Assembly: GCA_021814065.1 (NCBI GenBank)
Contig: JAKAIZ010000002.1
Coordinates: 909 to 64,908 of the forward strand
Length of the DNA: 64,000 bases
Origin: Nitrospirota bacterium
GTDB taxonomy: Bacteria; Nitrospirota; Thermodesulfovibrionia; Thermodesulfovibrionales; UBA6898
Direction of reading: 5' to 3'
The notes below the pieces were generated by a model. That model worked only from the letters and a program-made list of their open reading frames with translations. It did no database searches and was not told the DNA's origin. The translations under genes were made by a program, and so were the position numbers. Shown one piece after another: positions 15,585-44,721 of the stretch. Positions within the stretch are counted from its first letter, which is position 1, and every line of letters starts with the position of its first letter.

Positions 15585-15696
15585 AAATTGTACAATAGCG
15601 AAGGGTGGGGATGGTCTTACGCATGAAGAGGCGGAACGGCCGGCCCGGTTCAGCGGCGAAAGCCGGCAAGGTACGAAGGGGAAAATTGGAGGGAAC

Positions 15697-25072: not shown

Positions 25073-26194
25073 TCAGCGTCTTGATTTATCGCCATTCGCC
25101 GTGTCGATGAGGAATTTTTCGAACCGGTAAGCTATCTTGTCCCAGGTCATGTCTTTGGCAGATTCCCTGCCCCGCAGTCCGATCTCTGTACGGTCCTTGC
25201 TTTCCTCAAGCTCCTTCATACACTGTGCGAGCGACGAGGCATCACCGGATTTAAAAGTCTTTCCCGCACCGTTCTTCTTCACAAAGGAGAACCCTGATAT
25301 GTCGCTTACAACGACCGGTTTCCCGCAGGCCATCGCTTCGAGGACCGCGATAGGCTGGACTTCATGGCGCGAGGGAAAGACCGCGAACGCAGCTTTACTC
25401 AGGACTTCTGTTTTTCTGTCGCCGGAAACCCAGCCGGTAAAATCGATTTTCCTCCGCACTTCCCCGGGCAGCGTCATGACTGAGGCCTTGAACTTCTCCA
25501 TGTCCCTGCCGTCACCTGCGATCACAAGCCCTATATCAGGAAGCCATTGCGAAAAATCCCTGTACGCGGCAAGGAGGAGATCGAGCCCCTTGCCGTATAT
25601 GTCTATTCTCCCGAAGTAAAGAACATAGTCTCCTTCGAATGTCGGAACGCCGAGAAGTTCCGGTGAAACGCCGTTGGCAATGATCGCAATGCGGCTCTTT
25701 GGATTCTTGCGAAACTTGCCAGCCGTTTCCTGGCTGATAAAAATAAAGTTCCGGTAGCAGGCAGGCCGCAGCTGTTCCATAAGGGAGAGGACCGAGGCGT
25801 AGAGAGGATTGTATTTTCTGAAATAGAGTGTTCCAGTGTATCCCTGGACCTGGAGCACTGCCGGCTTCCCGGCCACGGCGTGAAGAAACGTGGGGATCGC
25901 GGGAGAAAATTCCTCGATGATGACGTCATACTCACCTCCTTTTTTCTTGACGAACCGCGCCGCATGGTAAGCATAGGAGAGGAGCGTTATTGCTAGGCTC
26001 CTGCTTTCAGTCCCTGCAAATAGGTGCCGGAGTCCGTCCTTGTACCCGTCCGCCGCACCAGGATATTTCTTGCAGAGCAACGTGATATCGTGCCTGTCCT
26101 TCAGGTGCCGATAGATCTCATAGGCCCTGACGCCGACACCGCCGATCCCGAAATAATCCCCCTGGCTTTCGTAGAGAAGATGCAGTATCTTCAT
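25073..26194 (-). CDS. GT4-family (GT-B) glycosyltransferase
   Basis: 373 aa. C-terminal E..PIAVLEAMACGKPVVVSDISG motif typical of Glycos_transf_1. Confidence 0.85.
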   Translation of the reverse strand: MKILHLLYESQGDYFGIGGVGVRAYEIYRHLKDRHDITLLCKKYPGAADGYKDGLRHLFAGTESRSLAITLLSYAYHAARFVKKKGGEYDVIIEEFSPAIPTFLHAVAGKPAVLQVQGYTGTLYFRKYNPLYASVLSLMEQLRPACYRNFIFISQETAGKFRKNPKSRIAIIANGVSPELLGVPTFEGDYVLYFGRIDIYGKGLDLLLAAYRDFSQWLPDIGLVIAGDGRDMEKFKASVMTLPGEVRRKIDFTGWVSGDRKTEVLSKAAFAVFPSRHEVQPIAVLEAMACGKPVVVSDISGFSFVKKNGAGKTFKSGDASSLAQCMKELEESKDRTEIGLRGRESAKDMTWDKIAYRFEKFLIDTANGDKSRR

Positions 26195-27294
26195 TCGCCG
26201 TCCTGCAGGGCCTTCTCACAGGAATGAAGAATTCCCTGTGCAGTTTTTTCCCACGAAAATAGTTCAGCCCTCTTGAGCCCATTGGCCGAGAGCGTTTCCC
26301 TCAGACCTTCATTCCCGAGGGTCGTCAGGATCAGCTCTCCAAGGACGGCACTGTCAGCCGGATCAAAAAGCAGCCCCGCGTCTCCAATCACCTCAGGTAA
26401 TGAAGCACGGCTTGAGCATATGACAGGCGTGCCGCAGGCCATGGCCTCCAGGGGCGTCAGGCCGAACCCCTCGCTCAGGGATGGATGGACAAGTATGTCG
26501 GCATAAGAGTAGAGCCCTGGAAGATCTCCCTGTGGGACATAGTCGAGGTAACGCACTCTTTCATCCCGGGCGAGAGCCCCGTTGAAGAACTCCCTCCTGC
26601 CGGCGATGACGAGATCATGGGGAATCTCCTCCTTTATGCGCAAAAATGCATCAATGAGCAAGGTTACATTTTTGTACGGGAAAAGATTTCCGACAAAGAG
26701 GATATATCGGTCTCCTAAAGAATATCTCTGCAGAAACTCCTTTCTCTCCTGAAGCGGTTGCGGGTAATACCTTTTTTTGTTGTATCCGTTCAGCACCACA
26801 TCAATCCTGTTTTCGGGAATATCTGTTTCACGAAGCAGTTCTTTCTTTATATATTCGGAAACAACGGTTATGCGACGGGCCGTCTTGCCAAGTCGGTCAA
26901 GCGAGAGTCTGAAATAGAGGCCGGCCCTGCCGAATTGAGGAAGGAACCTGATAGGGTGCAGGTCATGGACCTGGACCACAAGCGGGACCATGGGGAGAAA
27001 GGGATATTCCATCATTGGACAATAAAGGAGATCACGCTTTCCGGCCCTGCACCTAAGCGGCAGAACTGCGTTTTGGTAAGACACTCTCAAAAGGTTGTTC
27101 CAAAAGCGCGTCGATCCCCTGATTGAGGAAGGGACTAAGGAAATTGCCGACTCGGGAACTCCTTCAAACCGGAAAGGAGAGTAGATAAGTGTGTCTCTGT
27201 TGCGCTCCACAAGACAACGCGAAACCTCCTGCGTGAAGACCCCGAGTCCCGTCGGTGTATCGTGAAGGAATGTGGCGTTGATGCCGATCTTCAA
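26191..27294 (-). CDS. GT4-family (GT-B) glycosyltransferase
   Basis: 367 aa. HPSLSEGFGLTPLEAMACGTPVICS motif. 4-nt overlaps with both neighbours. Confidence 0.85.
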   Translation of the reverse strand: MKIGINATFLHDTPTGLGVFTQEVSRCLVERNRDTLIYSPFRFEGVPESAISLVPSSIRGSTRFWNNLLRVSYQNAVLPLRCRAGKRDLLYCPMMEYPFLPMVPLVVQVHDLHPIRFLPQFGRAGLYFRLSLDRLGKTARRITVVSEYIKKELLRETDIPENRIDVVLNGYNKKRYYPQPLQERKEFLQRYSLGDRYILFVGNLFPYKNVTLLIDAFLRIKEEIPHDLVIAGRREFFNGALARDERVRYLDYVPQGDLPGLYSYADILVHPSLSEGFGLTPLEAMACGTPVICSSRASLPEVIGDAGLLFDPADSAVLGELILTTLGNEGLRETLSANGLKRAELFSWEKTAQGILHSCEKALQDGE

Positions 27295-28421
27295 TTGCGA
27301 AGGGCCTTTTCGTAAGTCCTGATTGTTTCCGCCGCGACCTTTTGCCAGGAGTACTCTCCAGCCTTTCTCAGGCCCTTTTGCTTCATCTCGGCTCTCAGCG
27401 AGGCAGAAGACAAGACTCGTGCTATTGCATCGGCGAGTGCTTCGTGGTTAGCAGGGTCAAAAAAGATTGCCGCATCGCCGGACACCTCCCTGTGGGGGGG
27501 GATGTCGGATACAATGACGGGAGCGCCGCAGGCCATCGCTTCGAGTGGAGGTATCCCGAATCCCTCGTAGAGAGAAGGGTACACGAAGACCGACGCGAAC
27601 TGATAGAGAGCGCACAGGGTCCCTCCGTCGACATAGTTCGTGAAAATGACGTCTTTCCCGAGGCCGAGTTTCTCCGGATAGGAGACAATGTCGTCATAGA
27701 GCCAGCCGAGTCCCCCGGCAATCACTAGCGCCACATCATATTTGGCCCTCACGTCTTTGTAAGCCCGAATCAGGGTCTTAAGGTTCTTTCTCGGCTCAAC
27801 GGTACCCGCATACAACAGGTAATCTCTTGTTGTAATCTTTCTGACCTCTCCGGGGATTTTCGAAACGTCTTTTGCCTCCCTGTAGCACTCCGCCGCGGCA
27901 AGGGGAATGACGTCGATTTTTGCGGGAGGAATATTCAGGATTTCGGTTACCTCGTCCCTGATAAAACTCGTATTGACGATGACCCGTTCGGAGGCCGAGA
28001 TATTTCCCAGTATGTTGGGTGTTACTTCCTTTGCAAATCCGTCTACGAAAAGTTCGGGAAAACGCATCACCGCAAGGTCGTAGACATTGCAGACACTCCT
28101 CGCGCCGATGGAGGGAATCGGGTCAAGGCTTGTCTCGTGGTACAGCTCATACGAAGTGACCGCGGCATCCCTTCTGTGGAAGCTCCGATAGACTGCATCA
28201 CCCATTTTTTTCACAAAGGGAGGATAATACTTCCCGAAGGTCGTCCTCATGCGCGCTGATAAGTCCCCGATCGACTTCACCAGTGCGATAGATGAATCGT
28301 CCAGAGTGGGAACGACATCAATTCCCGCCTTCAGCAGTTCGTTATAGAGGTTGAAGACGTAGAAGCCGACCCCAGCCCGGTGGGAGCATATGAGCAATCT
28401 TGTATTCAGAAGGACCCGCAC
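27291..28421 (-). CDS. GT4-family (GT-B) glycosyltransferase
   Basis: 376 aa. YPSLYEGFGIPPLEAMACGAPVIVSDI motif. First gene of the three-gene minus-strand operon. Confidence 0.85.
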   Translation of the reverse strand: MRVLLNTRLLICSHRAGVGFYVFNLYNELLKAGIDVVPTLDDSSIALVKSIGDLSARMRTTFGKYYPPFVKKMGDAVYRSFHRRDAAVTSYELYHETSLDPIPSIGARSVCNVYDLAVMRFPELFVDGFAKEVTPNILGNISASERVIVNTSFIRDEVTEILNIPPAKIDVIPLAAAECYREAKDVSKIPGEVRKITTRDYLLYAGTVEPRKNLKTLIRAYKDVRAKYDVALVIAGGLGWLYDDIVSYPEKLGLGKDVIFTNYVDGGTLCALYQFASVFVYPSLYEGFGIPPLEAMACGAPVIVSDIPPHREVSGDAAIFFDPANHEALADAIARVLSSASLRAEMKQKGLRKAGEYSWQKVAAETIRTYEKALRN

Positions 28422-28562
28422 TGCCCGGTTTACCAGCCGTCTCCTTTATGCATTCGGCGCGCCATGTAAAATTTTATCATAGCGGCGCGTCTTTATAACA
28501 GGCCAGCGTCAGACAATGCGTACAATGAGAGAGATCGGGTATAATATCAGGCGGCATCGTCC

Positions 28563-29348
28563 ATGAGTGCAAGTACGAGCGAAATATTCGAGATACTGAG
28601 ATACAAGGAACTTCTGCGGAACCTTGTGACGCGGGACATTAAGGTCCGCTACAAGCGGTCGGTCCTCGGCTTCTTCTGGGTCATGCTGAACCCTCTCCTC
28701 ATGATGTTAGTGATGAGCATGGTTTTTTCAAGCCTGTTCAAGGTAACGACGCCAAACTATACTTCCTATCTGCTTTCGGGCATCATCTTCTGGAACTTTT
28801 TTTCCCAGAGCACGTCCACTTCGGTAGTGAGTCTGATTTCCAACAGTGGTCTTATTAAGAAAATATATATTCCGAAGGCGATCTTCCCCCTTTCGGTTGT
28901 TCTTTCCGCAGTGGTCAATTTTTTCTTTTCCCTGGTGCCGCTTTTTTTCATTATTTATATGACCGGCACACCTCTCGGAAGCCATGTCTATCTCCTGCCC
29001 GTTATTCTCGTACTCGTGGCAGTGTTTTCGTTCGGTATCGCCCTAATACTGTCGACGCTTACGGTTTTTTTCCACGACACCATCTATATATATGATGTGC
29101 TGCTCATGATATGGATGTACATGACCCCGATATTCTATCCGGAATCGATTATCCCCCAGAAATTCAGTTTTATTATCCATCTCAACCCCTTCTATTATTA
29201 CCTGTCTATCTTCCGGGGAGCGCTGTACCTTGACGTTTCTTCAGTTTTCGAAAAATTGCTCTACGGGTTTCTTTTTTCCCTTGCATCCCTGACGGTAGGC
29301 TGGTTCTGTTACAGTGCGAACAAGGACAAGATCGTATACCATCTCTAA
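28563..29348 (+). CDS. wzm: ABC-2 type polysaccharide export permease
   Basis: 261 aa. N-terminal RDIKVRYKRSVLGFFW signature followed by six hydrophobic helices. Confidence 0.85.
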   Translation: MSASTSEIFEILRYKELLRNLVTRDIKVRYKRSVLGFFWVMLNPLLMMLVMSMVFSSLFKVTTPNYTSYLLSGIIFWNFFSQSTSTSVVSLISNSGLIKKIYIPKAIFPLSVVLSAVVNFFFSLVPLFFIIYMTGTPLGSHVYLLPVILVLVAVFSFGIALILSTLTVFFHDTIYIYDVLLMIWMYMTPIFYPESIIPQKFSFIIHLNPFYYYLSIFRGALYLDVSSVFEKLLYGFLFSLASLTVGWFCYSANKDKIVYHL

Positions 29349-29396
29349 TGCGAACATATATGAATAACACGACGAGGGTTGCCTTTGGATAGTGCC

Positions 29397-30125
29397 ATGA
29401 TAGAGATAAACGACGTTTGCGTACGTTACCGTCTTGCAAAGGAGAAGCCGAAGACCCTCCAGGAATATCTCATCGATAGACTGAAGGGGAAAAGACACGA
29501 CTATGAGGATTTCTGGGCTCTGCGGGATCTCAATATTGGGGTCAGAAAGGATGAAACCTTCGGCATCGTAGGCCGGAATGGTGCGGGGAAGAGCACGTTG
29601 CTGAAGGTCATCGCCGGGGTTTTGCGGCCGACCAGTGGACGAGTGTCTGTCCATGGGAAGATTGCTCCGCTCATTGAACTCGGCGCAGGGTTTGATCCTG
29701 AACTCACGGGCGCTGAAAATATCTATCTCAACGCATCTATCCTCGGGCTTTCACGGAGTGAAATAAAAGAAAGGTTCCCGAGCATTGTTGATTTTTCCGA
29801 GCTGAATGAATTTATATACAGTCCATTAAAAAGCTATTCTTCGGGAATGGTCGCAAGGCTGGGGTTCTCTATCGCTACGGAGGTCGATCCGGATATCCTT
29901 ATTATCGATGAGATTCTTTCGGTCGGAGACAAACAATTTGTGACGAAATGTAACGAGAGGATGCGTCTTTTCAGGGAAAAAGGGACGACGATGCTGCTTG
30001 TGTCGCATAACCTGGTCGAAATTGCCGAAATCTGCAGTACCGTCCTCTGGATGGACCACGGAGGGGCTAAGATGTGCGGAGAGCCGAAGACAGTTATTGA
30101 CGAATACGTGAAGTCGCTCACATAA
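29397..30125 (+). CDS. wzt: Polysaccharide ABC exporter ATP-binding protein (short form, no C-terminal carbohydrate-binding domain)
   Basis: Walker A GRNGAGKST, signature YSSGMVARLGFS, Walker B ILIIDE. Track start is TTG 29379; ATG 29397 (MIEINDVCVRY) is preferred. Confidence 0.85.
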   Translation: MIEINDVCVRYRLAKEKPKTLQEYLIDRLKGKRHDYEDFWALRDLNIGVRKDETFGIVGRNGAGKSTLLKVIAGVLRPTSGRVSVHGKIAPLIELGAGFDPELTGAENIYLNASILGLSRSEIKERFPSIVDFSELNEFIYSPLKSYSSGMVARLGFSIATEVDPDILIIDEILSVGDKQFVTKCNERMRLFREKGTTMLLVSHNLVEIAEICSTVLWMDHGGAKMCGEPKTVIDEYVKSLT

Positions 30126-30286: not shown

Positions 30287-30343
30287 ATAGGAGAGGATTT
30301 CCTGAGGCGTAAAATATTATTATTGCACGGAGGATGTTCGTTA

Positions 30344-32446
30344 GTGTCGAAGAGGTCTTGTGCCGCGGTATTATTCGGTATCCTCATCATATGTGCGGCA
30401 AGCGGTTTGTCCTATGCCGTAGTCATCACTCCTGATCTCCGCCAGGCATTGCAGTCCGCAGGTCCTGCCGGAGACGTTTCCGTGATCATAAATCTGGCCT
30501 ACAGGGTCGACCTCAAAAAAATTGCCGCAATTGCGCCTGACCGGATTGCCGGGAGTGACAAGGTGCGAAAAAGGGATGCGATAATCAAGGCTCTTCGGGA
30601 GAAGGCCAGTCTCACCCAGAAGTCCATAAGGGCACTGCTCCAAAACAGGGGCGCAAAGAAAATAAAACCCCTCTGGATCACAAATTCAGTTGCGGCAACG
30701 GTCCCTGCTTCGGTAATCAGCGAGTTGATGAGCCTGCCTGAGATAGAGAGCATCGAACTGGACGCGGTTGTACAGGCCTCTCCTGTTATTCCTGCGGCAG
30801 CGGTGACTCCGTCTGCCGGATATGAGTGGAATATTTCAACGATCAACGCGCCGGTCCTCTGGGGCGTCGGTATTAACGGTCCGGGCGCAGTAGTGGCGAA
30901 TCTGGATACGGGGGTCGATGTAAGTCACCCTGACCTGCAGAACAAGTGGAGGGGAGGCTCAGACAGTTGGTACAATCCTTATGCCGATCCTGCCAACTGT
31001 TGTTACTGTTCTAATGCGCCATTGCCTCTCACGACCTGCCTCACCAACTGTGTGGCTGCTACGGCATGTACTTCCTGTGAGCTTTCTGCGACAACCCCGT
31101 GCGACAACAACGGCCATGGCACCGGAACGATGGGAGTTATGGTCGGAGGCTCGGCGACGGATGCCTATGGTGTGGCGCCGGGTGCTCAATGGATAGCGGC
31201 AAAGATATTTAATGACGCCGGGACCACCGATGAGAGCAAGATTATCCTCGCGATGCAGTGGCTCCTCGCACCCGGAGGAAATGCCGCAAACGCCCCCGAC
31301 ATCGTCAATAACTCGTGGGGGTTTAATGCGCCGGGCCAGTGCTTCCCTGCGCTACCCAATGCGTTGGAGGTTGCGATTCAAAACGTTCAGGCCTCCGGCA
31401 TCGCCATGGTCTTTTCCGCCGGCAATAAGGGCCCGAATCCTTCAACCAGCGTGAGCCCTGCCAACTATCCGGGAAGTTTTGCGGTCGGCGCGACCGACGG
31501 TTCTAATCTTATCGCCTGGTTTAGCAGCAGGGGACCTTCCGCCTGTCTTGACAGAACCGCCAGCTTCCCTAATGTAGTAGCTCCCGGCCTAGGCATCTAT
31601 ACTTCAGCCCCTGTCTCCCCCGGACCTTCTTATGTAACGGTTCAGGGCACATCCTTTTCCGCTCCTCACGTTGCCGGTGCAGAGGCCTTGCTGATAAGCG
31701 CATTTCCTACTCTGACCCCGGACCTGGTGGAAACAGCCCTTGAACAGACCGCAGTGAACATCGGGGCACCTGCTTCTGTTCCCAATATTACTTATGGATA
31801 CGGCCTGATTGATGTCAACGGAGCACTCTCATACCTTACTTCGCATGGAGAAATCTCCATTCCCGAAATCGTAGGCTATCCTGCCTCTTTTGATTACGGG
31901 ACGGTGGATACATCCAGTCCGCTGATTTCTCAGACATTTACAATTACAAACAGAAGCGCAGCGAGCATAACGGTAAATTCGATAACGGTCACAGGTCTCA
32001 ATGGTAGGGATTTCTTGATATCAAGTAACACTTGCAGCGGATATTCCCTGGCTCCTTTGGCAAGCTGCACGTTTATCGTGACGCCTACTTCTACCGGTCC
32101 TAAGATTGCGGATATAAGCATCAATTATGGCAGCAGTCCTGCTTATAATGTCCCGCTCAGCGGTAATATTACAACGCCTGTTGCACGTGTTCAGAGCAGT
32201 ACAGTGATTGCGACTTACTCCCTTATCCAGACGGCCTATAATAAGTGTGCCGGCGGGGAAATCGTCGGGATGCAGGCGACAACGTATTACGAAAGTCCGA
32301 ACTTTAATTCCCCTTTAAACATAAGCGTCAGCTTGCAGGGCGGTTATGATGCATCGTTTGGATATCAGTACGGCTTTACTACTCTCCAGGGTTCGCTCAC
32401 AATCAGTAGCGGGACAGTGACCGTTGGGAATTTAATATTGCAGTAA
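30344..32446 (+). CDS. Secreted S8 (subtilisin-like) serine protease with an I9-like propeptide and C-terminal beta-rich domains
   Basis: Catalytic triad blocks VANLDTGVD, GHGTGTMGV, GTSFSAPHVAG. GTG 30344 lies 9 nt after GGAGGA and gives the signal peptide VSKRSCAAVLFGILIICAASGLSYA. Track start is TTG 30323. Confidence 0.9.
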   Translation: MSKRSCAAVLFGILIICAASGLSYAVVITPDLRQALQSAGPAGDVSVIINLAYRVDLKKIAAIAPDRIAGSDKVRKRDAIIKALREKASLTQKSIRALLQNRGAKKIKPLWITNSVAATVPASVISELMSLPEIESIELDAVVQASPVIPAAAVTPSAGYEWNISTINAPVLWGVGINGPGAVVANLDTGVDVSHPDLQNKWRGGSDSWYNPYADPANCCYCSNAPLPLTTCLTNCVAATACTSCELSATTPCDNNGHGTGTMGVMVGGSATDAYGVAPGAQWIAAKIFNDAGTTDESKIILAMQWLLAPGGNAANAPDIVNNSWGFNAPGQCFPALPNALEVAIQNVQASGIAMVFSAGNKGPNPSTSVSPANYPGSFAVGATDGSNLIAWFSSRGPSACLDRTASFPNVVAPGLGIYTSAPVSPGPSYVTVQGTSFSAPHVAGAEALLISAFPTLTPDLVETALEQTAVNIGAPASVPNITYGYGLIDVNGALSYLTSHGEISIPEIVGYPASFDYGTVDTSSPLISQTFTITNRSAASITVNSITVTGLNGRDFLISSNTCSGYSLAPLASCTFIVTPTSTGPKIADISINYGSSPAYNVPLSGNITTPVARVQSSTVIATYSLIQTAYNKCAGGEIVGMQATTYYESPNFNSPLNISVSLQGGYDASFGYQYGFTTLQGSLTISSGTVTVGNLILQ

Positions 32447-32584: not shown

Positions 32585-33019
32585 ATGAAACGGATTGGCA
32601 GATTTTATTCCCAGGTCGCAGTGGCCGGCATTTATTGCATGTTTCTGATCTGGGGCGGTCAGGCATCTGCTGGAGACGCCAACCTGTGCGCAGGAGATAT
32701 CGCAAAGTTCTGCAAAGATGTGAAACCCGGCGCGGTCATGGATTGCCTTGAAAGACATGAAAACGAACTATCCGACGAGTGCAAGACCTATGAAGCAAAG
32801 ATGGGCGGGAAGAGGGTCGAGATGAGGGAGGAAGTGCGGCAGCTGAAGATCTTTCGGGAGGCCTGTAACGAGGATATGGCCAAATTCTGCAAGGACGTCC
32901 AGCCTGAACAGAGCGTGATCGAAAAATGTCTGAGTTCACATGAAGGTGAATTGTCGGCATCGTGCGGGGAACGCATGAAAGCGACTATGGAAGAGAGGGC
33001 GAAGAAGAAAACACCGTAG
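32585..33019 (+). CDS. Secreted cysteine-rich repeat protein (two 4-Cys repeats)
   Basis: AAGGAGGAG RBS and a signal peptide. Repeats CAGDIAKFCKDVKPGAVMDCLERHENELSDEC and CNEDMAKFCKDVQPEQSVIEKCLSSHEGELSASC resemble the Cys-rich repeat family (PF00839-like) from memory. Confidence 0.75.
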   Translation: MKRIGRFYSQVAVAGIYCMFLIWGGQASAGDANLCAGDIAKFCKDVKPGAVMDCLERHENELSDECKTYEAKMGGKRVEMREEVRQLKIFREACNEDMAKFCKDVQPEQSVIEKCLSSHEGELSASCGERMKATMEERAKKKTP

Positions 33020-33791: not shown

Positions 33792-36700
33792 ATGAAGAGG
33801 CGCAATAATTTGGTCCTTGTGAGTGTGCTTTTGCTTGCAACGGCCTTTCCCTGGGGAATCAACACGGCTGATGCCGGCCCCGGGATCACCAATCCATGCC
33901 CGCCGGACCAGATTTGCCCCGAGGGGCCTGGTTTCGGTACCTACTACGCAAATAGCCCCGCGGGTATCCGGACTTATCAGGGTGTGTCATATTTTACCGG
34001 TGGCCCTCTCAGGAAGTTTGTCGACAGTCTGCCGGGCTTGGGATATGCGAACAGAAATAACCTGGGGCAATATATCCCGGTTGCTGTGCCGGATACATCG
34101 ACGTTTCCGGGGTCCGACTATTACGTGATCGGCCTGAAGGACTACAGAATAAAGATGCATTCCGACATGCCAGCTGCGACTGACACACTCGGAACCGGTA
34201 CAAGGATCAGGGGTTATTACCAGATCAACGGCACGGATCACAGTTCACAATATCTGGGGCCTTTGATCATAGCCAGGCGGGACAGGCCGGTGCGCCTCCT
34301 CTTTGAAAACCATCTCGGCGCCGGAACGGCAGGCGACCTCTTCATACCGGTTGACACCACGGTGATGGGTGCAGGGCAGGGTCCGCTTGGGCTTGGCTGC
34401 GGAGGAGTTTACCCCGGCTGCAACTACACCCAGAACCGGGCTGTTATCCATCTCCACGGCGGCAACACACCATGGATCAGCGATGGTATTCCCCGCCAAT
34501 GGATAACCCCGATCGGGGAATACTCGACGCCCTATCTTAAAGGGGAGACCCAGCGAAACGTCCCTGACATGTGGTTTGACTCGGGCCACAACGTTGTCCC
34601 GGCTGGAACCTCCGGTGCGACGAACGACCCTGGTCAGGGAAGGGCCACTTATTATTGGACTAACCAGCAGAGCGGCAGGTTTATGTTTTTTCATGACCAC
34701 TCTTACGGACTCACACGCCTTAACGTATATGCGGGCGAGGCGGCGGGCTATCTGATAACAGACCCCGAGGAAGATAAATTGATCGATGCCGGTACTATCC
34801 CCAATGTATGTCCTTCCGGCAGTCCTGATTGCGTATACCGTTACGGGATACCCCTTGTCATCGAGGACAAGACTTTCGTTCCCTGGGACGTCTCTGTCCA
34901 GGATGCAAAATGGGATGTCAATAAATGGGGTAAGCCGGGAGACCTCTGGTTCCCTCATGTCTACGAGCCGAATCAGAAGCCCAATGACCCGACCGGCGCC
35001 AACCCCTTCGGAAGATGGGACTATGGCCCATGGTTCTGGCCTCCTGTGCTGCTTGACGCCGCACACTCAACGCTTCCCGACCCTTCGATAGTGCCGGAAG
35101 CTTTTATGGACACTCCGATAGTCAACGGCACTGCATATCCTTATCTGAACGTGGAGCCGAAGGCCTACAGGTTCCGTATCCTCAATGCCACAAACGACAG
35201 GATGCTCAACCTGCAATTCTATGTTGCAGAACCTCTCCATATCAGTGTTACAAACGGGGGCTCCAATTATTCCGCAACGCCGATTGTTGAAATAGGCAGC
35301 AGCGGCTGCACCCCCGAGCCACTGGCAACTGCAACGGTGGATGGCGGTGTGATTACGGGAATTACAGTTACCAACTCTGACTCAATTGCATGCACCTCGA
35401 TTCCAAATGTCAGCATAACGGACTCAACCGGGACAGGCGCTGCCGTGGCTGCTTCAATCAATACGGAAGTCAGGATGGTGGCGGCGCTGCCGCCGACTGC
35501 AGGAAATCTTCCGGCCTGTACCACGGCAACAGTGACTAATGACTCGGGGCTTGCGCTCGGGGGCCTCACGCTGGGCCCAACGGGCCTTCCGGCAAATTGC
35601 TGGCCGACGACATGGCCGGTAGACGGAAGGGACGGGGGCGTGCCTGATCCGACCACAGCCGGGCCTGCGATGGTCCAGATCGGCACTGAAGGAGGTTTTC
35701 TGCCGAAGCCGGTTGTGATACCCTCGACTCCGGTCGGCTATGAATACAACCGCAGAAATATAGTGGTCCTGAATGTCCTGAACAAGGCGATTTTTCTCGG
35801 CTCGGCCGAAAGGGCCGACATCGTCGTAGACTTCTCTCAGTTTGCAGGGAAAACACTAATAATGTATAACGACGCGCCGGCGCCTGTCCCTGGTTTCGAT
35901 CCTCGCAACGACTACTACACTGACGACCCTGATCAGTCCTCGACAGGGGGCGCACCCACGACCCTGCCCGGTTACGGCCCTAACACTCGTACGATCATGC
36001 AATTCCGGGTGGCGGACTCTGCTACCCCCCCTACCTTTGACCTCGCGGCGCTGCAGAATGAGGCAACCGGTCTCCCTGCAGCGTTTGCAGCGTCTCAACC
36101 GCCTATGCACGTGCCCGAACCGGTTTATCCTGCTCCCAACAATGCCGTCGCCGATACGCTTGCAACTATCCAGGCATACTCTTTAACCTTCAATCCGAAC
36201 ACACTGACCAGCGGCATCGAGGCGATCAGGAATATAACGGTAATAAACGGGGGCGCGGGATATACTGTTGCCACCGTAACTGTGGATCCGCCACCTCCCG
36301 GTGGCACGCAGGCGACGGCTTCTGCGGCCGTATCGGGCGGTGCTGTCACGGCTATAAACATCATAAACCCCGGATCAGGGTATTATTATGCTCCCGGAGT
36401 TACGATTTCAGGCGACGGCACGGGCGCTGCTGCCGTTGCCAATTTTGGGGCGACTCCCCAGGCGATCAGGTCCGTCACGGTTACGAACGGAGGCTCGGGC
36501 TGCGTTGCCTCTCCGACTGTCAATTTCTTGGGTGGCGGCGGCACGGGCGCTACTGCTTCTGCAACGGCACCGGCCGGAGAAATTACCGGGATCACGGTTA
36601 CGAATGGAGGTTCCGGGTATACTTCTTTACCCGCAGTGGCAATCACAGGCTGCACTTTTGCCGCTACTGCCGTTGCGAACTTTGAGCCGGTAACGGTCCC

Positions 36701-38246
36701 TATGCAGCCAAAGGCGATCCAGGAGCTCTGGGACTCCTATGGCAGGATGAACGCCACACTCGGCGTCGAGCTCCCATTTACCAATAACAACATCCAGACA
36801 ACCATCCCGCTCGGATACATTGATCCGACTACTGAGATAGTGCCCGAGGGGCAGACGCAGCTATGGAAGATCACCCATAACGGTGTCGACACCCATCCTG
36901 TCCACGTACACCTTTACAACATGCAGATCATCAACAGGGTCGGCTGGGACGGGGCGATAAGGCCGCCGGAGGACAATGAACTCGGATGGAAGGAGACTGT
37001 CAGGATGAACCCGCTGGAGGACATTATCGTCGCGCTTCAGCCGAGGACCATGACCCTTCCCTTCACGGTACCGGATAGCGTCCACAGTGAGGACACTACT
37101 ACTCCGGCGAGCTCTAATATAACCGTCGTAAGCCCATTCGGGATACCGGGGGGAGGCGTGGTCGGCAACCCGATTATTGTTTCAAACGCCGATCAATTCT
37201 TCGGGTGGGAATATGTCTGGCACTGCCATATCCTTGGCCATGAAGAAAACGACTTTATGCGTCCGTTTGTCATGCTTGTCCCTAACGATTTCCCTGCTGC
37301 GCCGACCAGCCCGTTTGCTACAGTGCCGACTCCGGCGTTGCCCGCGACAACAGGGAACACCGTCCAATTGAGCTGGACGGATAATGATGCCCTCGATCCC
37401 CAAACGAATCTGCCGGAGGCTGTCCGGAATTCCGAGATCGGTTTTCGCATCGAGCGTGACAGCGGCAGCGGATTCGTACCGATAACGAACGTATTTACGC
37501 CGATAACATATGTTTATCCGGACACGATTTACTTTACCGATACACAGGTCGCTTCGGGCGCGACTTACAACTACCGGATCTGGGCTTATAACGAGAAAGG
37601 CGACTCGCTGCGTTCGGTGACAGCGTCGGTAACGATGCCGACATGGACGAAGGCCGATAGCGTGACCCTCATCCCCACGCCGGCGAGTCCGGTGGTAGCC
37701 GGAAACCCGGTCTTGTTTTCTGCCTATGGTTCGGGCTCCTCAGTTTCCTACCAGTACCGGTTCTGGCAAAACGGTGTCATGGTCCAGGACTACGGTATCG
37801 GCTCTACGTGGACGATGCCGGCTTCGACGCTTCCGGGGACCTATACAATAATCGTCGATGTGCGGACCAGCCTGTCGTCTCCGGCTCCGGATGCGTCTGC
37901 GTCCACAAACTATGTAGTTTCGAATCCTTTTGTCACGCCGGCGTCAGGATCAGTGCAGATTGTCACGCCTCCGACGACAATTACGCCTCATTCTGTCGTT
38001 ACCCCTTATTCTACCCTTGCAGCAGCATTTGCCGCAGCCCAGGCTAACGACACGATCGAGGCATGGGGCGTGCCGTTCTCCGAAAGTATTAACTTAACCA
38101 CCCCCGGGCCGGCCACAGTGACATTTGCCGGAGGTTATGACCAAACCTTCGGCAGCCCCCTTTCCATGACTACCCTGCAGGGCGGATCCCTGACTGTAGG
38201 CGGAGTCGGCGGGACCCTGGTCGTGGACCGGCTGACTATACAATAA
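33792..38246 (+). CDS. Giant secreted multicopper oxidase with inserted GGxGY repeats, FN3-like and Y_Y_Y-like domains and a shared C-terminal module
   Basis: ATG 33792 follows AGGAGGAG and gives the signal peptide MKRRNNLVLVSVLLLATAFPWGINTADA; the track ORF starts at 33744. Copper motifs appear in order: IHLHGG, FFHDHSYG, HPVHVHL, WHCHILGHEENDFM. Confidence 0.9.
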   Translation: MKRRNNLVLVSVLLLATAFPWGINTADAGPGITNPCPPDQICPEGPGFGTYYANSPAGIRTYQGVSYFTGGPLRKFVDSLPGLGYANRNNLGQYIPVAVPDTSTFPGSDYYVIGLKDYRIKMHSDMPAATDTLGTGTRIRGYYQINGTDHSSQYLGPLIIARRDRPVRLLFENHLGAGTAGDLFIPVDTTVMGAGQGPLGLGCGGVYPGCNYTQNRAVIHLHGGNTPWISDGIPRQWITPIGEYSTPYLKGETQRNVPDMWFDSGHNVVPAGTSGATNDPGQGRATYYWTNQQSGRFMFFHDHSYGLTRLNVYAGEAAGYLITDPEEDKLIDAGTIPNVCPSGSPDCVYRYGIPLVIEDKTFVPWDVSVQDAKWDVNKWGKPGDLWFPHVYEPNQKPNDPTGANPFGRWDYGPWFWPPVLLDAAHSTLPDPSIVPEAFMDTPIVNGTAYPYLNVEPKAYRFRILNATNDRMLNLQFYVAEPLHISVTNGGSNYSATPIVEIGSSGCTPEPLATATVDGGVITGITVTNSDSIACTSIPNVSITDSTGTGAAVAASINTEVRMVAALPPTAGNLPACTTATVTNDSGLALGGLTLGPTGLPANCWPTTWPVDGRDGGVPDPTTAGPAMVQIGTEGGFLPKPVVIPSTPVGYEYNRRNIVVLNVLNKAIFLGSAERADIVVDFSQFAGKTLIMYNDAPAPVPGFDPRNDYYTDDPDQSSTGGAPTTLPGYGPNTRTIMQFRVADSATPPTFDLAALQNEATGLPAAFAASQPPMHVPEPVYPAPNNAVADTLATIQAYSLTFNPNTLTSGIEAIRNITVINGGAGYTVATVTVDPPPPGGTQATASAAVSGGAVTAINIINPGSGYYYAPGVTISGDGTGAAAVANFGATPQAIRSVTVTNGGSGCVASPTVNFLGGGGTGATASATAPAGEITGITVTNGGSGYTSLPAVAITGCTFAATAVANFEPVTVPMQPKAIQELWDSYGRMNATLGVELPFTNNNIQTTIPLGYIDPTTEIVPEGQTQLWKITHNGVDTHPVHVHLYNMQIINRVGWDGAIRPPEDNELGWKETVRMNPLEDIIVALQPRTMTLPFTVPDSVHSEDTTTPASSNITVVSPFGIPGGGVVGNPIIVSNADQFFGWEYVWHCHILGHEENDFMRPFVMLVPNDFPAAPTSPFATVPTPALPATTGNTVQLSWTDNDALDPQTNLPEAVRNSEIGFRIERDSGSGFVPITNVFTPITYVYPDTIYFTDTQVASGATYNYRIWAYNEKGDSLRSVTASVTMPTWTKADSVTLIPTPASPVVAGNPVLFSAYGSGSSVSYQYRFWQNGVMVQDYGIGSTWTMPASTLPGTYTIIVDVRTSLSSPAPDASASTNYVVSNPFVTPASGSVQIVTPPTTITPHSVVTPYSTLAAAFAAAQANDTIEAWGVPFSESINLTTPGPATVTFAGGYDQTFGSPLSMTTLQGGSLTVGGVGGTLVVDRLTIQ

Positions 38247-38403: not shown

Positions 38404-39099
38404 ATGAAGAAGTTATTGGTAGTTGTGATGGCAGTGGCGGCAGTAGCATGCATGTTGGTGCCCCCGGCGTTTGCTGGGCTCGGCGACAGCAGTGCAGATT
38501 TATTGTTTACTCCTGTGGCGCCCTGCAGGATAGTTGATACCAGAGTCGCAGGAGGCAGGATTGATGCCGGAACGCAGAGAAATTTTTACGTAGTGGGGGC
38601 TGCTGCCAACTTTGCCTCCCAGGGAGGAACGGCGGGCGGCTGTGGAATTCCTGCCGGCGCAACGGCAGTGATGATCAACTACGTGGCTGTGGGGCCAGCA
38701 GGTCCTGGCGATCTTCGGGCCTGGCCTTACGGGAGCACGATGCCTAATTCCTCGGTAATCAATTACGCTGCTTATGCAGGCCTGAACCTAGCCAACGGGC
38801 TCGTTCAGCCAATCTGTGACAGCACAGCCACAACGTGTACGTCAGACCTCACTGTGCAGGCCGATGTAAGCTCAACGCATCTTGTCGCCGACGTTATGGG
38901 ATATTATCAGAAGTACCCCGGAGTTAATGTTGCCGGCGGGCTGGCGGCAGACGCAAGATTGAAGGTAGTAACCGGGGATATTGTTTCAACTGCTCAGGGT
39001 AACGGTCTCATAATGAAGGCTTCGGACGGGGCCAATTGTTTTCGGATTACGGTGAACAACGCAGGGGCACTCAGCACGTCTTCCGTAACGTGTCCTTGA
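38404..39099 (+). CDS. Secreted protein with an unassigned ~140-aa conserved domain (paralog 1)
   Basis: AAAGGAGAA RBS. Signal peptide MKKLLVVVMAVAAVACMLVPPAFA. Shared block FTPVAPCRIVDTR...GGCGIPAGATAVMINYVAVGPAGPGDLRAWPYG..MPNSSVINY...VADVMGYY. Confidence 0.75.
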   Translation: MKKLLVVVMAVAAVACMLVPPAFAGLGDSSADLLFTPVAPCRIVDTRVAGGRIDAGTQRNFYVVGAAANFASQGGTAGGCGIPAGATAVMINYVAVGPAGPGDLRAWPYGSTMPNSSVINYAAYAGLNLANGLVQPICDSTATTCTSDLTVQADVSSTHLVADVMGYYQKYPGVNVAGGLAADARLKVVTGDIVSTAQGNGLIMKASDGANCFRITVNNAGALSTSSVTCP

Positions 39100-40859: not shown

Positions 40860-43364
40860 ATGTCCGATAGCGTTCCAGACGGAATAAACGCCGCTTCCGA
40901 AAACAATATCCCATCCTATTATCTTCACGTCAGGTCGGAGATACTTTCCGCTGTCCCTTCAACCGCACTTAACATTCTCGATGTCGGCTGCGCGGCAGGC
41001 ATGCTGGGGAAGGCGCTCAAGGAAAAAGACCCTGCCCGCCGGCTCGTCGGGATAGAACTGGATGCCTTCGCGGCGTCGTTTGCAAAGCGGTTGCTGGACG
41101 CCGCCTATCATGCCGACGTCGAATCTTTCGACCCCCCTTTTCAGCCGGGGGAATTCGACTGTATCGTCTTCGCCGATGTCCTCGAACATCTGAGAGACCC
41201 GTGGGCTACAGCGGAAAAGTATGTGACTTTCCTTAAGCCGGGCGGCACGCTCATCGCGTCCGTCCCGAACGTCCGCTATCTGCCCCTTCTCAGGGATGCG
41301 GCCGAGCTCGGCCTGTGGGAATATCAGGAGGAGGGGATCCTGGACAAAAGCCATCTGCGGTTCTTTACGAAGAGGCAGTTCCTGGAGATGATGGAGCGGC
41401 TTTCGGTCGGCTGCGACGCGGTAGAATATCTCTACAAGGACCCGTTGCATGTGATAGGCGCTGAGGGACACGGGCGGGCTGTTCAATGCGGCAACCTCCT
41501 GCTCATGAACGTAACCGATGAAGAGCTCGATGAGTTGCGCGCCTTTCAGTTCGTCTTTGTCGGGACTTACCGGCCCGGGACTGCTAGGGCGGACAATCAA
41601 TGGACCGGGCAAGAGTCTATCCGAAAGGCAGGATGCGGTGAACGTCCCGAACAGTCTACGGAGCCTCTTGAAAAGTCCGCTTCAGAGGGAGAGGTCGATA
41701 TGGGCAGGCCGGTCCCGATGGGACCGAAATATGATATGGGCCGGCAGGACCTTGTTGTCGGGCACCTTGAGGAGATCCATTTCCAGCAGTGCGACTATCC
41801 CAAAATTTCTATAATTATTCCTGTGATGGACAAATGGATGCTCACATATCATTGCCTGAGCTCTATTCTCGAACATACGAAAGAGATCGCTTATGAAGTG
41901 ATTATCGTCGATGACGGCTCCACGGATGAAACGATCGAAATGCTCGGAAAAGTCGGAAACATTACGCTGCTTAGAAACGAAAAAACCAGGGGGTTTGTGT
42001 TTTCCTGCAATAAGGGAATTGGGAGCGCAAGGGGGGAATACGTTCTTTTTCTCAATAACGACACGGTCGTCACCGAGGGCTGGCTGACGCCGATGGCCGC
42101 GCTGCTGGACAATTCGGCGGCAATAGGCGCTGTCGGAGCAAAATTGATCCTTCCCGACGGGACCTTGCAGGAGGCGGGCTGCATTGTATGGAATGACGGC
42201 TCCACGGCAGGATACGGCGGGGGTGAAAATCCTGAAGATCCCCGGTTCTGTTATGTGAGGGACGTCGACTACTGTTCCTGCGCCTGTCTGCTTGTCCGCA
42301 AGGAACTCCTATATGATCTGGGAGGTTTTGATGAGGTGTACTCACCGGCCTATTATGAAGATGCGGACCTTTGCTTCGAAGTCAGGAGGCTGGGATACCG
42401 GGTTGTTTATCAGCCTGCTGCTAAAATCATCCACCATCAGTTCGGCAGCAGTTCAAGAGAAGAAGCCATGGCCCTTTATCTGAAAAACATGTCGGCTTTT
42501 GCGGCGAAATGGCGTCACGTTCTTAACGGACAGTATTCTCCGAAAAGCGGCAATGTCCTGCGGGCGAGAACCAGCAGGCGGGGGCAAAGAGTCCTTATCA
42601 TTGACGGTAGCGATACTGTATTCGATGAGACGGGATATCTTCGATCGGCCCGTGATATCGCAGAATTTCTTATGCGGTCCGGCTACACGGTGACGTTCTT
42701 CTCTCTGAGTGGGAATAATTGCCGGCAGGCAGGCGTACTCCAACAGCAGGGTGTCGAAGTATTCTGCGGCGGTGAAATGACGGCAGGGGACTTGGCAAGA
42801 GAAAGGGCCGGTTTCTACAGTGCACTCTTTATATGTGCGCCGTTGCGTGCCGACGACGAACTGAAAACCCTTAGGGAGGCATTCCCCTCGGCGCGGCTCA
42901 TCTATAAAGTGGTAGAATCCGGATCCAAGGCTGATGGCGAGGAAGAAAAGAGAACCGAACTGCTGGTGCAGTATGGTCCCGACGTTGTTATTGTGCCATC
43001 GCAAGGTATGGTCAACAATTTCTCGGAGCGGGGGCTTCGAAACGTTTTTTTCTGGGGATGTCAGGCTGAGCCAAAGCCTCAAGGGGACCGTCCGGTGAAT
43101 CAAACGCTCGCTGATACTATGAGAAAAGCCTTCAGAGGGGCGCCGATTGAAGAGGATAGATGTGGTTCCGATGATTTATTAGTTCAGGAGCTTCGAGCCA
43201 AGACAGATGAAATGGAGCGATACGTGACAAGTCTGAAAGAGACCCTTGCCGAGAAGGACAAATACGTAGAAAGCCTGCTGGAGGCCGTCGGCAGGAAGGA
43301 CGTGTATATCGCGTCTTTGCTCGAACACATAGAAGAAATCAAGAAGAAGATCAAATGGTTTTAG
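40860..43364 (+). CDS. SAM methyltransferase - GT2 glycosyltransferase - uncharacterised alpha/beta region - C-terminal coiled coil
   Basis: Methyltransferase block ILDVGCAAGMLG...FDCIVFADVLEHLRDPW...LKPGGTLIASVPN. GT2 block ISIIIPVMDK...IIVDDGSTDET...EDADLCF. The last ~45 residues form 14-residue repeats (EMERYVTSLKETLA / EKDKYVESLLEAVG / RKDVYIASLLEHIE). Confidence 0.85.
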   Translation: MSDSVPDGINAASENNIPSYYLHVRSEILSAVPSTALNILDVGCAAGMLGKALKEKDPARRLVGIELDAFAASFAKRLLDAAYHADVESFDPPFQPGEFDCIVFADVLEHLRDPWATAEKYVTFLKPGGTLIASVPNVRYLPLLRDAAELGLWEYQEEGILDKSHLRFFTKRQFLEMMERLSVGCDAVEYLYKDPLHVIGAEGHGRAVQCGNLLLMNVTDEELDELRAFQFVFVGTYRPGTARADNQWTGQESIRKAGCGERPEQSTEPLEKSASEGEVDMGRPVPMGPKYDMGRQDLVVGHLEEIHFQQCDYPKISIIIPVMDKWMLTYHCLSSILEHTKEIAYEVIIVDDGSTDETIEMLGKVGNITLLRNEKTRGFVFSCNKGIGSARGEYVLFLNNDTVVTEGWLTPMAALLDNSAAIGAVGAKLILPDGTLQEAGCIVWNDGSTAGYGGGENPEDPRFCYVRDVDYCSCACLLVRKELLYDLGGFDEVYSPAYYEDADLCFEVRRLGYRVVYQPAAKIIHHQFGSSSREEAMALYLKNMSAFAAKWRHVLNGQYSPKSGNVLRARTSRRGQRVLIIDGSDTVFDETGYLRSARDIAEFLMRSGYTVTFFSLSGNNCRQAGVLQQQGVEVFCGGEMTAGDLARERAGFYSALFICAPLRADDELKTLREAFPSARLIYKVVESGSKADGEEEKRTELLVQYGPDVVIVPSQGMVNNFSERGLRNVFFWGCQAEPKPQGDRPVNQTLADTMRKAFRGAPIEEDRCGSDDLLVQELRAKTDEMERYVTSLKETLAEKDKYVESLLEAVGRKDVYIASLLEHIEEIKKKIKWF

Positions 43365-43374
43365 GATAAACAAA

Positions 43375-44685: not shown

Positions 44686-44721
44686 GGCCGTCCCCCGGGG
44701 AAATTCGGCGTTAAGGATAGA

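Follow-up and report, generated by a model that had tools for sequence, protein, structure and literature searches.

The window, meaning the whole analyzed stretch of 64,000 nucleotides from a contig of a Nitrospirota bacterium (JAKAIZ010000002.1), carries 2 forward-strand genes for exported enzymes that end in the same module. The first, at 30344..32446, encodes an S8 subtilase of 700 aa when read from a GTG at 30344 (Pfam Peptidase_S8 E = 2 × 10−47); its longest ORF opens at a TTG at 30323, which gives the 707-aa numbering used here for its domains. The protein is laid out as a signal peptide, an S8 domain, a choice-of-anchor D Ig-like domain, and the C-terminal module. The predicted Sec signal peptide (30344..30418, with VSKRSCAAVLFGILIICAASGLSYA preceding the cleavage site and V following it) was read by eye from the translation. 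The Peptidase_S8 catalytic domain covers aa 186 to 494 (30878..31804; PF00082, 162 bits), and a choice-of-anchor D or HYDIN-VesB-type Ig-like domain covers aa 514 to 605 (31862..32137), as matched by NCBIfam NF012200 (choice_anch_D) at E = 1.2 × 10−10 and 41.8 bits, slightly under the 45-bit cutoff. The choice-of-anchor D family is named for standing before alternative C-terminal anchors, and here it directly precedes the module, which occupies aa 619 to 707 (32177..32443).

The second gene, at 33792..38246, encodes a giant multicopper oxidase (MCO) of 1484 aa from an ATG at 33792, with Pfam Cu-oxidase_2, partial NCBIfam matches to PhsA and CueO, Ig-like and FN3-like inserts, and its own copy of the module at aa 1409 to 1500 in the 1500-aa longest-ORF numbering (37968..38243). 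We call it OmpB/MofA-like, the family description being taken from PMC5566968. Its predicted signal peptide, also read by eye (33792..33875, MKRRNNLVLVSVLLLATAFPWGINTADA before the cleavage site and G after it), was considered as either Sec or Tat, its KRRNNLV motif not being canonical for Tat. Between the 2 genes is a secreted 144-aa Cys-rich repeat protein at 32585..33019 on the same strand (Pfam Cys_rich_FGFR E = 5 × 10−11), itself without the module. The starts given above, GTG 30344 and ATG 33792, are probably the corrections needed to the longest ORFs, as the public contig copies ENA ERZ27237554 and GCA_028064315.1 (the latter a MAG labeled "Nitrospiraceae bacterium") call the genes from there, and the exact oxidase product from ATG 33792 is present on 12 public contigs. 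From gene calls on an identical public contig, with Pfam for the upstream set, the surroundings are 3 GT4 glycosyltransferases on the reverse strand (within 25073..30125) and a forward-strand Wzm/Wzt-type ABC-2 polysaccharide exporter (28563-30125) upstream, and a methyltransferase-GT2 fusion, a sulfotransferase, and a GT1-family protein downstream, all forward (40860..47259). These flanks place both module genes within a surface-polysaccharide locus, a context noted in the preliminary description that is real in the window but does not recur in the related loci examined, where the recurrent neighbors are RHS/YD proteins and S74 fiber proteins, both absent from the window.

The protease and the oxidase are alike only at their tails, where BLASTP of the 707-aa against the 1500-aa longest-ORF translation gives E = 7 × 10−8 with 32% identity over 97 aa. 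The Smith-Waterman score of tail against tail is 118, to be compared with 28.2 ± 5.2 and a maximum of 61 over 2000 shuffles (z = 17.2, none of the 2000 reaching 118), and with a top score of 35 to 38 for either tail against other windows of the partner protein. The similarity, first noticed by reading the translations, is therefore genuine and survives the shuffled-sequence control that had been named as a way to overturn it; the tail translations quoted at that time match the sequence exactly. Each tail runs up to the stop codon that closes a long ORF, and a six-frame scan of the window with an HMM made from the 2 tails finds these 2 copies only. The extent needs adjustment, since the module had been drawn as about 80 residues beginning at 32204 and 38004, and an extra N-terminal beta-strand (PVARVQ in the protease, PPTTIT in the oxidase) belongs to it. 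Its true start is about 9 to 12 residues further upstream, giving about 89 aa and the coordinates 32177-32443 and 37968-38243. The first copy, delimited by the pairwise statistics, by positions 4 to 88 of the family HMM, and by an AlphaFold2 (AF2) model, reads as the strand PVARVQ, a cap helix at IQTAYN, and the motifs GGYD, TTLQG, and GTVTVGNLILQ, the last running to the C terminus; the second is delimited by the pairwise statistics and family HMM positions 8 to 88.

Relatives of the module turned up at 9 loci in genomes and 12 in metagenomes, and a word-indexed search using a 10-sequence alignment built from the genome loci gave 61 matches. An exhaustive profile search gives 10,051 cluster representatives at E ≤ 10−3 and 5,078 at E ≤ 10−10, a count in which some of the weaker matches may be without the module, as the profile held about 45 flanking columns of Ig-like neighbors; the module is present in all of the 150 best matches. 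Every named carrier belongs to Nitrospirota or to Desulfobacterota/"Deltaproteobacteria", and a single genome or locus can have several carriers (at least 4 for BMS3Abin06, 4 for locus L018, and 2 for locus L019). Neither tail matches Pfam or NCBIfam at E ≤ 10, no PDB sequence matches the module significantly in a sequence-profile search, and our literature search found no description of it. Quinolinate phosphoribosyltransferase, a marginal match in the PDB search, is evidently spurious. The family is thus thousands of proteins strong and absent from every domain catalog searched (Pfam, NCBIfam), so that its carriers are named by their other domains only. The clusters come from environmentally important anaerobes, including Nitrospirota/Thermodesulfovibrionia-like MAGs and Geobacter relatives, and the carriers among them include proteases and metal oxidases as well as adhesin-like proteins. 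Annotation would gain from a definition of the family, which would mark a large set of probable surface-displayed exoproteins, among them the OmpB/MofA-type MCOs implicated in metal redox chemistry.

The AF2 model of the module, computed with a 63-sequence multiple alignment, has a pLDDT of 86.7 and a pTM score of 0.76, and shows a capping helix followed by a beta-helix-like strand order. The Cys of GGYDC covaries with one just ahead of the first strand, both being present in 141 sequences and neither in 76, with 14 discordant, which indicates a disulfide and hence an oxidizing, extracytoplasmic location. Because of the model and the covarying pair, we take the module to be a folded extracytoplasmic domain of about 89 residues, and a short linear tag is ruled out. 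The preliminary description had likened the first half to the opening turn of right-handed beta-helix proteins, and this holds: the first half is homologous to their N-terminal cap, making the whole module a cap plus about 2 rungs. The shared cap motif is (S/T)(L/I)QxA(Y/I)(N/D)AAxxGDxI followed by F/Y-x-E, and HMM positions ~3 to 54 of the module, its first half, recur every ~400 aa in giant proteins, each time opening a beta-helix unit. In one relative (P0106) the half-module coincides with the N terminus of a Pectinesterase match, in another (P0161) a full module runs directly into a PF13229 match, and 4 of the 63 family members have weak NosD matches. Foldseek of the model against the PDB gives nothing under E = 2.3; the partial fold matches that come closest are to beta-helix proteins, namely tapirin (6n2b) and, at a query TM-score of up to 0.55, phage DUF1565 proteins. 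Pfam beta-helix models give no match at E ≤ 1 on the module (both tails, 63 members), nor does hhalign align the module with a NosD/Beta_helix protein, the single one compared (L016). The cap helix and first rung of a beta-helix are thus present, but not the 3 or more PbH1 rungs that a profile would detect, the module stopping at ~89 aa. Compared with PF13229, NosD, Pectinesterase, and DUF1565 domains, it shares the cap motif and first rungs but ends after ~2 rungs, has its own conserved GGYD(C) loop with the disulfide, and is placed C-terminally on unrelated proteins. That the starting piece of a beta-helix should serve again as a terminal module in its own right is unusual. The best-conserved positions of the module (YSTLQAAYNAA, GD.I, GGYD) look as if they determine the fold rather than bind a ligand.

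Among 252 non-redundant instances, the module lies within 4 residues of the C terminus in 181, usually with 0 to 2 residues beyond the last strand. It is not always C-terminal, since 59 instances have at least 20 residues after it, internal copies with further domains behind them occur (P0112, P0125, P0120, P0062, P0066), and there are tandem doublets and triplets (P0065 for a triplet), throughout in secreted multidomain proteins. Internal copies in many cytoplasmic proteins had been named as a result that would count against a surface role; the internal copies exist, but no cytoplasmic carrier was seen among the proteins examined. Carriers include S8, M4, and C1 peptidases, MCOs, GH2 enzymes, beta-helix proteins, and MopE, all of secreted type, as well as signal-peptide proteins with PKD, FN3, CARDB, RCC1, FG-GAP, TSP3, and YD repeats. 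The simplest carriers, such as the 163-aa P0008 with a signal peptide, one YD hairpin, and the module, and P0046, which likewise has almost nothing besides the module, look like adaptors. The internal and tandem copies argue against an obligate cleaved sorting signal, and a tandem arrangement is typical of modules that bind or anchor.

The ends of the 2 tails, ...GTVTVGNLILQ and ...GTLVVDRLTIQ, have neither a hydrophobic stretch as long as 15 residues nor a basic tail, confirming the earlier reading that they are unlike PEP-CTERM, LPXTG, or GlyGly-CTERM. Those signals, too, are C-terminal on diverse surface proteins and often behind choice-of-anchor domains, but they measure ~25 to 35 aa and consist of a motif, a TM helix, and a basic tail, whereas the module is soluble and beta-rich with a polar end. 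The non-aromatic end noted at the outset extends to the family, with Q, K, E, N, or R as the last residue in 156 of the 181 terminal copies. Only 7 of the 181 end in F or Y, and the length is 89 aa versus at least 250 aa for a barrel, so the features of an outer-membrane beta-barrel or autotransporter beta-signal are missing. The comparison with dockerins (PF00404) is closer in habit, as these are also small, mostly C-terminal on diverse secreted enzymes, and occasionally internal or duplicated. The module differs in having no sequence or fold similarity to them, no Ca-binding loops, and no known cohesin-like partner. PF00404 has no match on the modules of the 63 members, the only dockerin match being in a separate region of P0112; as that protein has a genuine Dockerin_1 alongside the module, neither makes the other redundant.

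A further comparison is among homologs of the oxidase, of which there are 6261 at E ≤ 10−20, including Geobacter, Anaeromyxobacter, and Methanoperedens proteins; strong matches are the MCO/FN3 proteins of Geobacter pickeringii, Geomesophilobacter, and Anaeromyxobacter. Among the 120 best homologs of the oxidase body, the C-terminal piece is the module in 15, a tail of ~70 aa that is dockerin-like by eye only in ~19 (G. pickeringii, for example), an FG-GAP/VCBS-like repeat array in ~14, and a TM helix with an RRR tail in 1. Pfam finds no dockerin match in the Geobacter-type MCO tails, which are at the same position as the module. The module thus has a modular, mostly terminal placement, and orthologs have other anchoring-type tails in its place. 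This swapping of tails among orthologous MCOs makes the position an interchangeable slot for localization or attachment.

From these observations we infer, tentatively, that the module is a non-covalent docking module for the cell surface or matrix. It would be a mini beta-helix made of an N-terminal strand, a capping alpha-helix, and about the first 2 rungs of the pectin-lyase type, closed by the conserved GGYD loop, with the disulfide stapling the first strand to that loop in most relatives. It would be appended last, behind an Ig-like stalk, on many signal-peptide exoproteins of Nitrospirota and Desulfobacterota. The carrier enzyme would cross the inner membrane via Sec (or Tat) and the outer membrane via the general type II route, after which the module may attach to a structure of the cell surface (a glycan or a protein partner) and so retain the carrier there or in the extracellular matrix, working like a dockerin or SLH-type anchor rather than a cleaved sorting peptide. 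The docking function, its partner, and the export route are all part of what we infer, the type II route being suggested by one adjacency and by the literature on a homolog with a different tail. The adjacency is in G. argillaceus, where 43 nt separate a module gene from gspEFGHIJK downstream of it, the only T2SS adjacency among the loci examined. The homolog is Geobacter OmpB, which PMC5566968 and the title of Mehta 2006, as it appears in PMC1974784, describe as an MCO exposed at the surface and exported through an atypical T2SS. The surface-display tag of the preliminary description is accordingly kept as to its recurrence on unrelated exported proteins, with attachment or retention as the best reading, and is weakened as to a short tag or a cleaved signal. 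With Geobacter argillaceus ATCC BAA-1139 as a culturable carrier, the module offers a handle on how extracellular enzymes are retained or sorted in these diderms.

The strong terminal bias would also suit a secretion signal. The alternative is a true C-terminal sorting domain, like the T9SS CTD in function, that would be read in the periplasm by dedicated outer-membrane machinery of Nitrospirota and Desulfobacterota, which would export and attach the carriers and possibly remove the module or link it covalently later. The 181 copies at the extreme C terminus, the small size with highly diverse cargo and several carriers per genome, the position behind a choice-of-anchor D domain, and the narrow set of lineages all favor it, and T9SS CTDs do sit at the extreme C terminus of many unrelated Sec-exported proteins, behind Ig-like, PKD, or FN3 stalks, with proteases and adhesins among many cargo proteins per genome. 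They also measure about 70 to 100 aa, so the module is not too short for one, as had been claimed. T9SS membership is excluded instead because there is no HMM or fold match: CTD profiles (TIGR04183/PF18962 and related models) match neither tail (E ≤ 10) nor the 63 members (E ≤ 1), CTDs are among the solved structures that Foldseek leaves unmatched, and the module has a capping helix and beta-helix-like strand order where a CTD has an Ig-like beta-sandwich. No PorU, PorV, Sov, or other T9SS genes occur within the window or the flanks of related loci fetched, and Nitrospirota and Desulfobacterota, the hosts of the module, are not known to have a T9SS. A sorting domain of another system is unlikely on our estimate, as an obligatory terminal signal should not permit internal, doublet, and triplet copies, no universal processing, secretion, or machinery gene stands beside the module genes in 25+ loci, and orthologous MCOs do with non-signal tails or none.

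We assign a similarly low probability to a substrate-targeting module of the CBM type, binding the external polymer or mineral acted on rather than the carrier's own cell surface. The parent pectin-lyase beta-helix fold typically binds glycans, the module occupies the place of CBMs and PPC domains in secreted hydrolases, proteases and oxidases are numerous among the carriers, and tandem copies are frequent among CBMs. Against this, the cargo (MCO, proteases, RCC1, FG-GAP, PKD-only, and YD-only proteins) is too mixed for one substrate, many carriers have no catalytic domain, and the module keeps the cap and first rungs without the long glycan-binding groove of beta-helix enzymes. A structural end-cap or C-terminal pro-domain of the PPC or aqualysin pro-sequence type, with no binding role, would assist folding, delay activity, or shield the end of the Ig-like stalk, and we regard it as very unlikely. 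S8, M4, and C1 peptidases often bear removable C-terminal extensions, several carriers are such peptidases, the conserved residues look structural, and the PPC domain (PF04151) is likewise a C-terminal appendage of ~70 to 90 aa on secreted S8 and M4 peptidases. Yet peptidases are a minority and the module is also on non-peptidases, P0008 and P0046 are nearly all module, a pro-domain would have no reason to occur in tandem triplets, and PF04151 matches neither the 2 tails nor the 63 members.

In 8 of ~20 related loci an S74-chaperone trimeric fiber gene is directly downstream of the module gene, often beside RHS/YD proteins. It is conceivable, at still longer odds, that Nitrospirota and Desulfobacterota have an undescribed surface-display system for which the module tags the cargo. 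The mature fiber N terminus (A-x-GDL-I-V-N-G-N-V-G-I-G-T) would then complete the free last rung of the module, the one half of a split beta-helix, and strand complementation would load enzymes onto cell-surface fibers; if true, this would be a cohesin-dockerin-like system made of beta-helix parts. Short matches that resembled stand-alone, module-only small proteins were rejected, being fragments of frameshifted long-read assemblies or, in one case, of a gene split by an integrative element.

The S8 protease (30344-32446, plus strand) and the multicopper oxidase (33792-38246) of the window end in a common module of ~89 residues. The identical window sequence is present in contigs of a 'Nitrospiraceae bacterium' MAG (GCA_028064315.1; ENA ERZ27237554), whose gene calls give the starts of the two carrier genes. 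The protease is a subtilase (Pfam Peptidase_S8, E = 2 × 10−47) with a choice-of-anchor D Ig-like domain at residues 514 to 605 (NCBIfam E = 1.2 × 10−10, slightly under the cutoff), and the very large oxidase matches Pfam Cu-oxidase_2 and, partially, PhsA and CueO. When the whole proteins are compared by BLASTP, the tails are the sole significant segment (E = 7 × 10−8, 32% identity, 97 aa). Tail against tail, the Smith-Waterman score is 118, versus 28.2 ± 5.2 with a maximum of 61 in 2000 shuffles, and a tail against any other stretch of the partner protein scores at most 38. A search of all six reading frames of the window with an HMM built from the two tails brings up no further copy. The similarity, first proposed in a preliminary description made from the sequence alone, is therefore real and specific. 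The translations given there match exactly, each reaching the stop codon of a long plus-strand ORF, but the module truly starts one beta-strand earlier than was proposed, giving improved limits of 32177-32443 in the protease and 37968-38243 in the oxidase, both on the plus strand.

Between the two genes, 32585-33019 (plus strand) encodes a secreted protein of 144 aa whose Cys-rich repeats belong to the Cys_rich_FGFR type (PF00839, E = 5 × 10−11), typical of eukaryotes. Directly downstream of the oxidase are two paralogous secreted proteins of 231 and 391 aa (38404-39099 and 39575-40750, plus strand) that have no Pfam or NCBIfam match and share a domain with the motif TPVAPCRI(V/I)DTR..GG...G.....F.V.G.

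With the threshold relaxed to E ≤ 10, neither tail has a match in Pfam or NCBIfam. When 63 members are scanned singly, the module region has only weak NosD matches in 4 of them (best E = 0.004), all other matches falling in flanking domains; a sequence profile search of the entire PDB returns one marginal, spurious match. NCBI names of the carriers derive from other domains, such as 'choice-of-anchor D' or 'PKD', and no description of the module was found in the literature searched. A pattern scan of one genome per species yields nine loci, in Geobacter argillaceus, several Nitrospirota/Thermodesulfovibrionales MAGs, BMS3Abin06 and one deltaproteobacterial MAG, and a metagenome scan adds twelve. 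A word-indexed search with a 10-sequence alignment gives 61 matches, and a 63-sequence profile against 1.84 billion cluster representatives gives 10,051 at E ≤ 10−3, 5,078 at E ≤ 10−10 and 165 at E ≤ 10−30, the weak end of that list being uncertain because the profile held some flanking columns. Re-scanning with a module-only HMM confirms the module in all 150 of the best 150 matches. Matches with an organism name are all from Nitrospirota, BMS3Abin06 or 'Deltaproteobacteria'. The module represents a new domain family, not catalogued before, that is carried by surface or secreted enzymes in Nitrospirota and Desulfobacterota; it is of moderate interest, chiefly for annotation and as an entry point to exoenzyme display in these bacteria.

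The consensus begins C-x-lPVRI-(5-7)-YYSTLQAAYNAA-x-x-GD-x-IQ-(5)-F-x-E-x-L-x-x-N-(4)-VTL-x-GGYD(C), followed by x-(Y/F)-(5)-G-x-T-x-L-x-G-x-(L/M)-T-I-x-x-G-T-V-T-(V/I)-x-N-(F/L)-x-(I/L)-x-COOH. Terminal copies have Q, K, E, N or R as the last residue, and rarely an aromatic. The AlphaFold2 model of the protease tail, from the 63-sequence alignment, is confident (pLDDT 86.7, pTM 0.76), with two short N-terminal strands, a helix on IQTAYN, and then six strands. The Cys immediately preceding the PVRI strand covaries with that of GGYDC, both being present in 141 instances, neither in 76 (the class of both window copies), with 14 discordant, a pattern indicative of a disulfide and hence of a folded domain outside the cytoplasm. 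Taken together, the evidence shows the module to be a folded, disulfide-capable, extracytoplasmic mini-domain.

Its first half had been likened to the opening turn of right-handed beta-helix proteins, and this is correct on several grounds. Positions ~3-54 of the module HMM, its first half, recur about every 400 residues in seven giant proteins. In the database protein P0106 one such half-module falls on the N-terminal portion of a Pfam Pectinesterase match, and in another, P0161, a full-length module runs straight into a PF13229 Beta_helix match. Foldseek with the module model finds nothing significant in PDB or BFVD; its best partial superpositions are to beta-helix proteins, namely large phage proteins (query TM-scores up to 0.55), a phage DUF1565 protein and tapirin 6n2b. 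In the best description, the module consists of a beta-helix cap and about two rungs, after which it stops abruptly; it is a truncated beta-helix starter re-employed as a terminal module.

Among 252 non-redundant full-length instances, 181 end within 4 residues of the protein C-terminus (150 of these within 1), 12 end 5-10 residues from it, and 59 are followed by at least 20 residues. Internal copies comprise upstream copies in two- or three-copy proteins (~45 proteins; P0065 has three in tandem, P0076 two), a few single copies that precede additional Ig-like domains or a dockerin (P0112, P0125, P0120), and those in the giant beta-helix proteins. The carriers cover a striking range of proteins, all apparently exported, with several occurring within one genome or locus: S8, M4 and C1 peptidases, the multicopper oxidase, a GH2-FG-GAP protein, and beta-helix, MopE, RCC1, CARDB, PKD, FN3, TSP3 and InlB-B-repeat proteins. 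Placement is shown to be modular: numerous unrelated exoproteins carry the module, in most cases as their final element. Some very small carriers are made up of a signal peptide, a single YD-repeat hairpin and the module. A signal peptide and single hairpin open many carriers (P0008, P0046, P0065, P0112, P0125 and those of loci L008, L009, L021 and L029), and the hairpin may be a second docking element, at the N-terminus. Apparent stand-alone module proteins are assembly fragments and were rejected. At locus L013 (1697-10384) a module gene is apparently split by an integrative element with an HTH protein, a primase and two tyrosine recombinases, leaving the 127-aa C-terminal fragment P0044.

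Homologues of the oxidase body (aa 17-1408) number in the thousands. Among the best 120, the module ends the closest 15, while ~19, including that of Geobacter pickeringii, have a ~70-residue tail (HGDVAP...PDGKID..DV...LRK.VGL..W/F) that is dockerin-like by eye yet unrecognised by Pfam, ~14 carry FG-GAP/VCBS-like repeat arrays at the end, one has a TM helix plus RRR there, and the rest have terminal FN3 domains or a LamG-like tail. Orthologues are thus shown to bear other anchoring-type elements in the module's position, and the C-terminus of this enzyme family is an interchangeable accessory position. Some 20 other homologues, with P0263, P0275 and P0277, share the ending ...MYFDEFTSSR(L/I)xG(L/V)xYxxxLPx(V/I)x(R/K)-COOH, which may be a further uncharacterised terminal element of giant multicopper oxidases. 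Geobacter OmpB is described as an outer-membrane-associated, surface-exposed multicopper oxidase with an FN3 domain, a homologue of MofA whose secretion runs through an atypical type II system (PMC5566968; reference list of PMC1974784); by this description the window oxidase is a candidate OmpB/MofA-like enzyme.

The two module genes are flanked on one side by GT4 genes and a Wzm/Wzt exporter and on the other by methyltransferase-GT2, sulfotransferase and GT1 genes, so the surface-polysaccharide setting proposed for them is real in the window, but it is not conserved in the other loci examined. In G. argillaceus (L005) the carrier gene follows an RHS gene, and gspE-F-G-H-I/J-K comes 43 nt downstream of it. 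Genes for large RHS/YD-repeat proteins adjoin module genes in 7 fetched loci (L005 15-2660, L008 3-2276, L021 3589-8652, L029 10286-16825 and others). In 8 of ~20 loci with room (L007, L008, L009, L013, L019, L021, L027, L029), a gene for a secreted fibre-like protein follows within ~100 nt, as at L008 6188-7774, L009 3645-4403 and L021 10213-11787. Its mature N-terminus reads A-(A/N)-(D/G)-GDL-(I/T)-V-x-G-N-(V/L)-G-(I/V)-G-T, followed by GNVGIGT repeats, and three members carry a C-terminal Peptidase_S74 intramolecular-chaperone domain (Pfam E = 10−16 to 10−18), which marks the protein as a tail-fibre-like trimeric fibre. Both families are absent from the window. No secretion or processing gene lies consistently beside the module genes among the fetched loci.

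Our tentative preference is for a binding or docking module that holds enzymes at the cell surface or in the matrix, favoured by the internal and tandem copies, the minimal adaptor-like carriers and the lack of an associated machinery gene. The same three observations speak against a cleaved sorting signal that must be terminal. Of the sorting or attachment tag first proposed, attachment or retention stays plausible and the strictly C-terminal character does not. A T9SS-CTD-like sorting domain serving an undescribed machinery had been set aside as requiring a longer module, and that size argument is wrong; given the internal copies and the missing machinery we nevertheless consider such a domain unlikely, and a CBM-like substrate-targeting module equally so. 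A structural end-cap or pro-domain is improbable. Attachment by docking could in principle take the form of a split beta-helix, with the co-encoded S74 fibres supplying the N-terminus that completes the exposed last rung, a scheme to which we give slightly less credence still.

Elsewhere in the window, 22701-23729 (plus strand) encodes a MamK-family actin-like protein (NCBIfam NF040964, 410.6 bits, cutoff 400), followed by a response-regulator-SPOR fusion protein (23766-24950), and no further magnetosome genes were noticed beside it within the window. At the edge of the polysaccharide locus there is a 1110-aa polytopic membrane protein (47401-50733, minus strand) matching nothing in Pfam or NCBIfam. 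A 786-aa probable lipoprotein (15526-17886, plus strand) with ~14 YGNGxFVAVG...TSxDGxxWT repeats (DUF6242) is probably a beta-propeller array and is weakly similar to BamI of Bacteroidota. The span 12003-15584 (plus strand) encodes a 1193-aa protein in which a coiled-coil segment, built of short repeats that are nearly identical (DIQIR.KD.QIGNLEAAI / KDARIEDL.AAINGK), links two glycosyltransferase regions.
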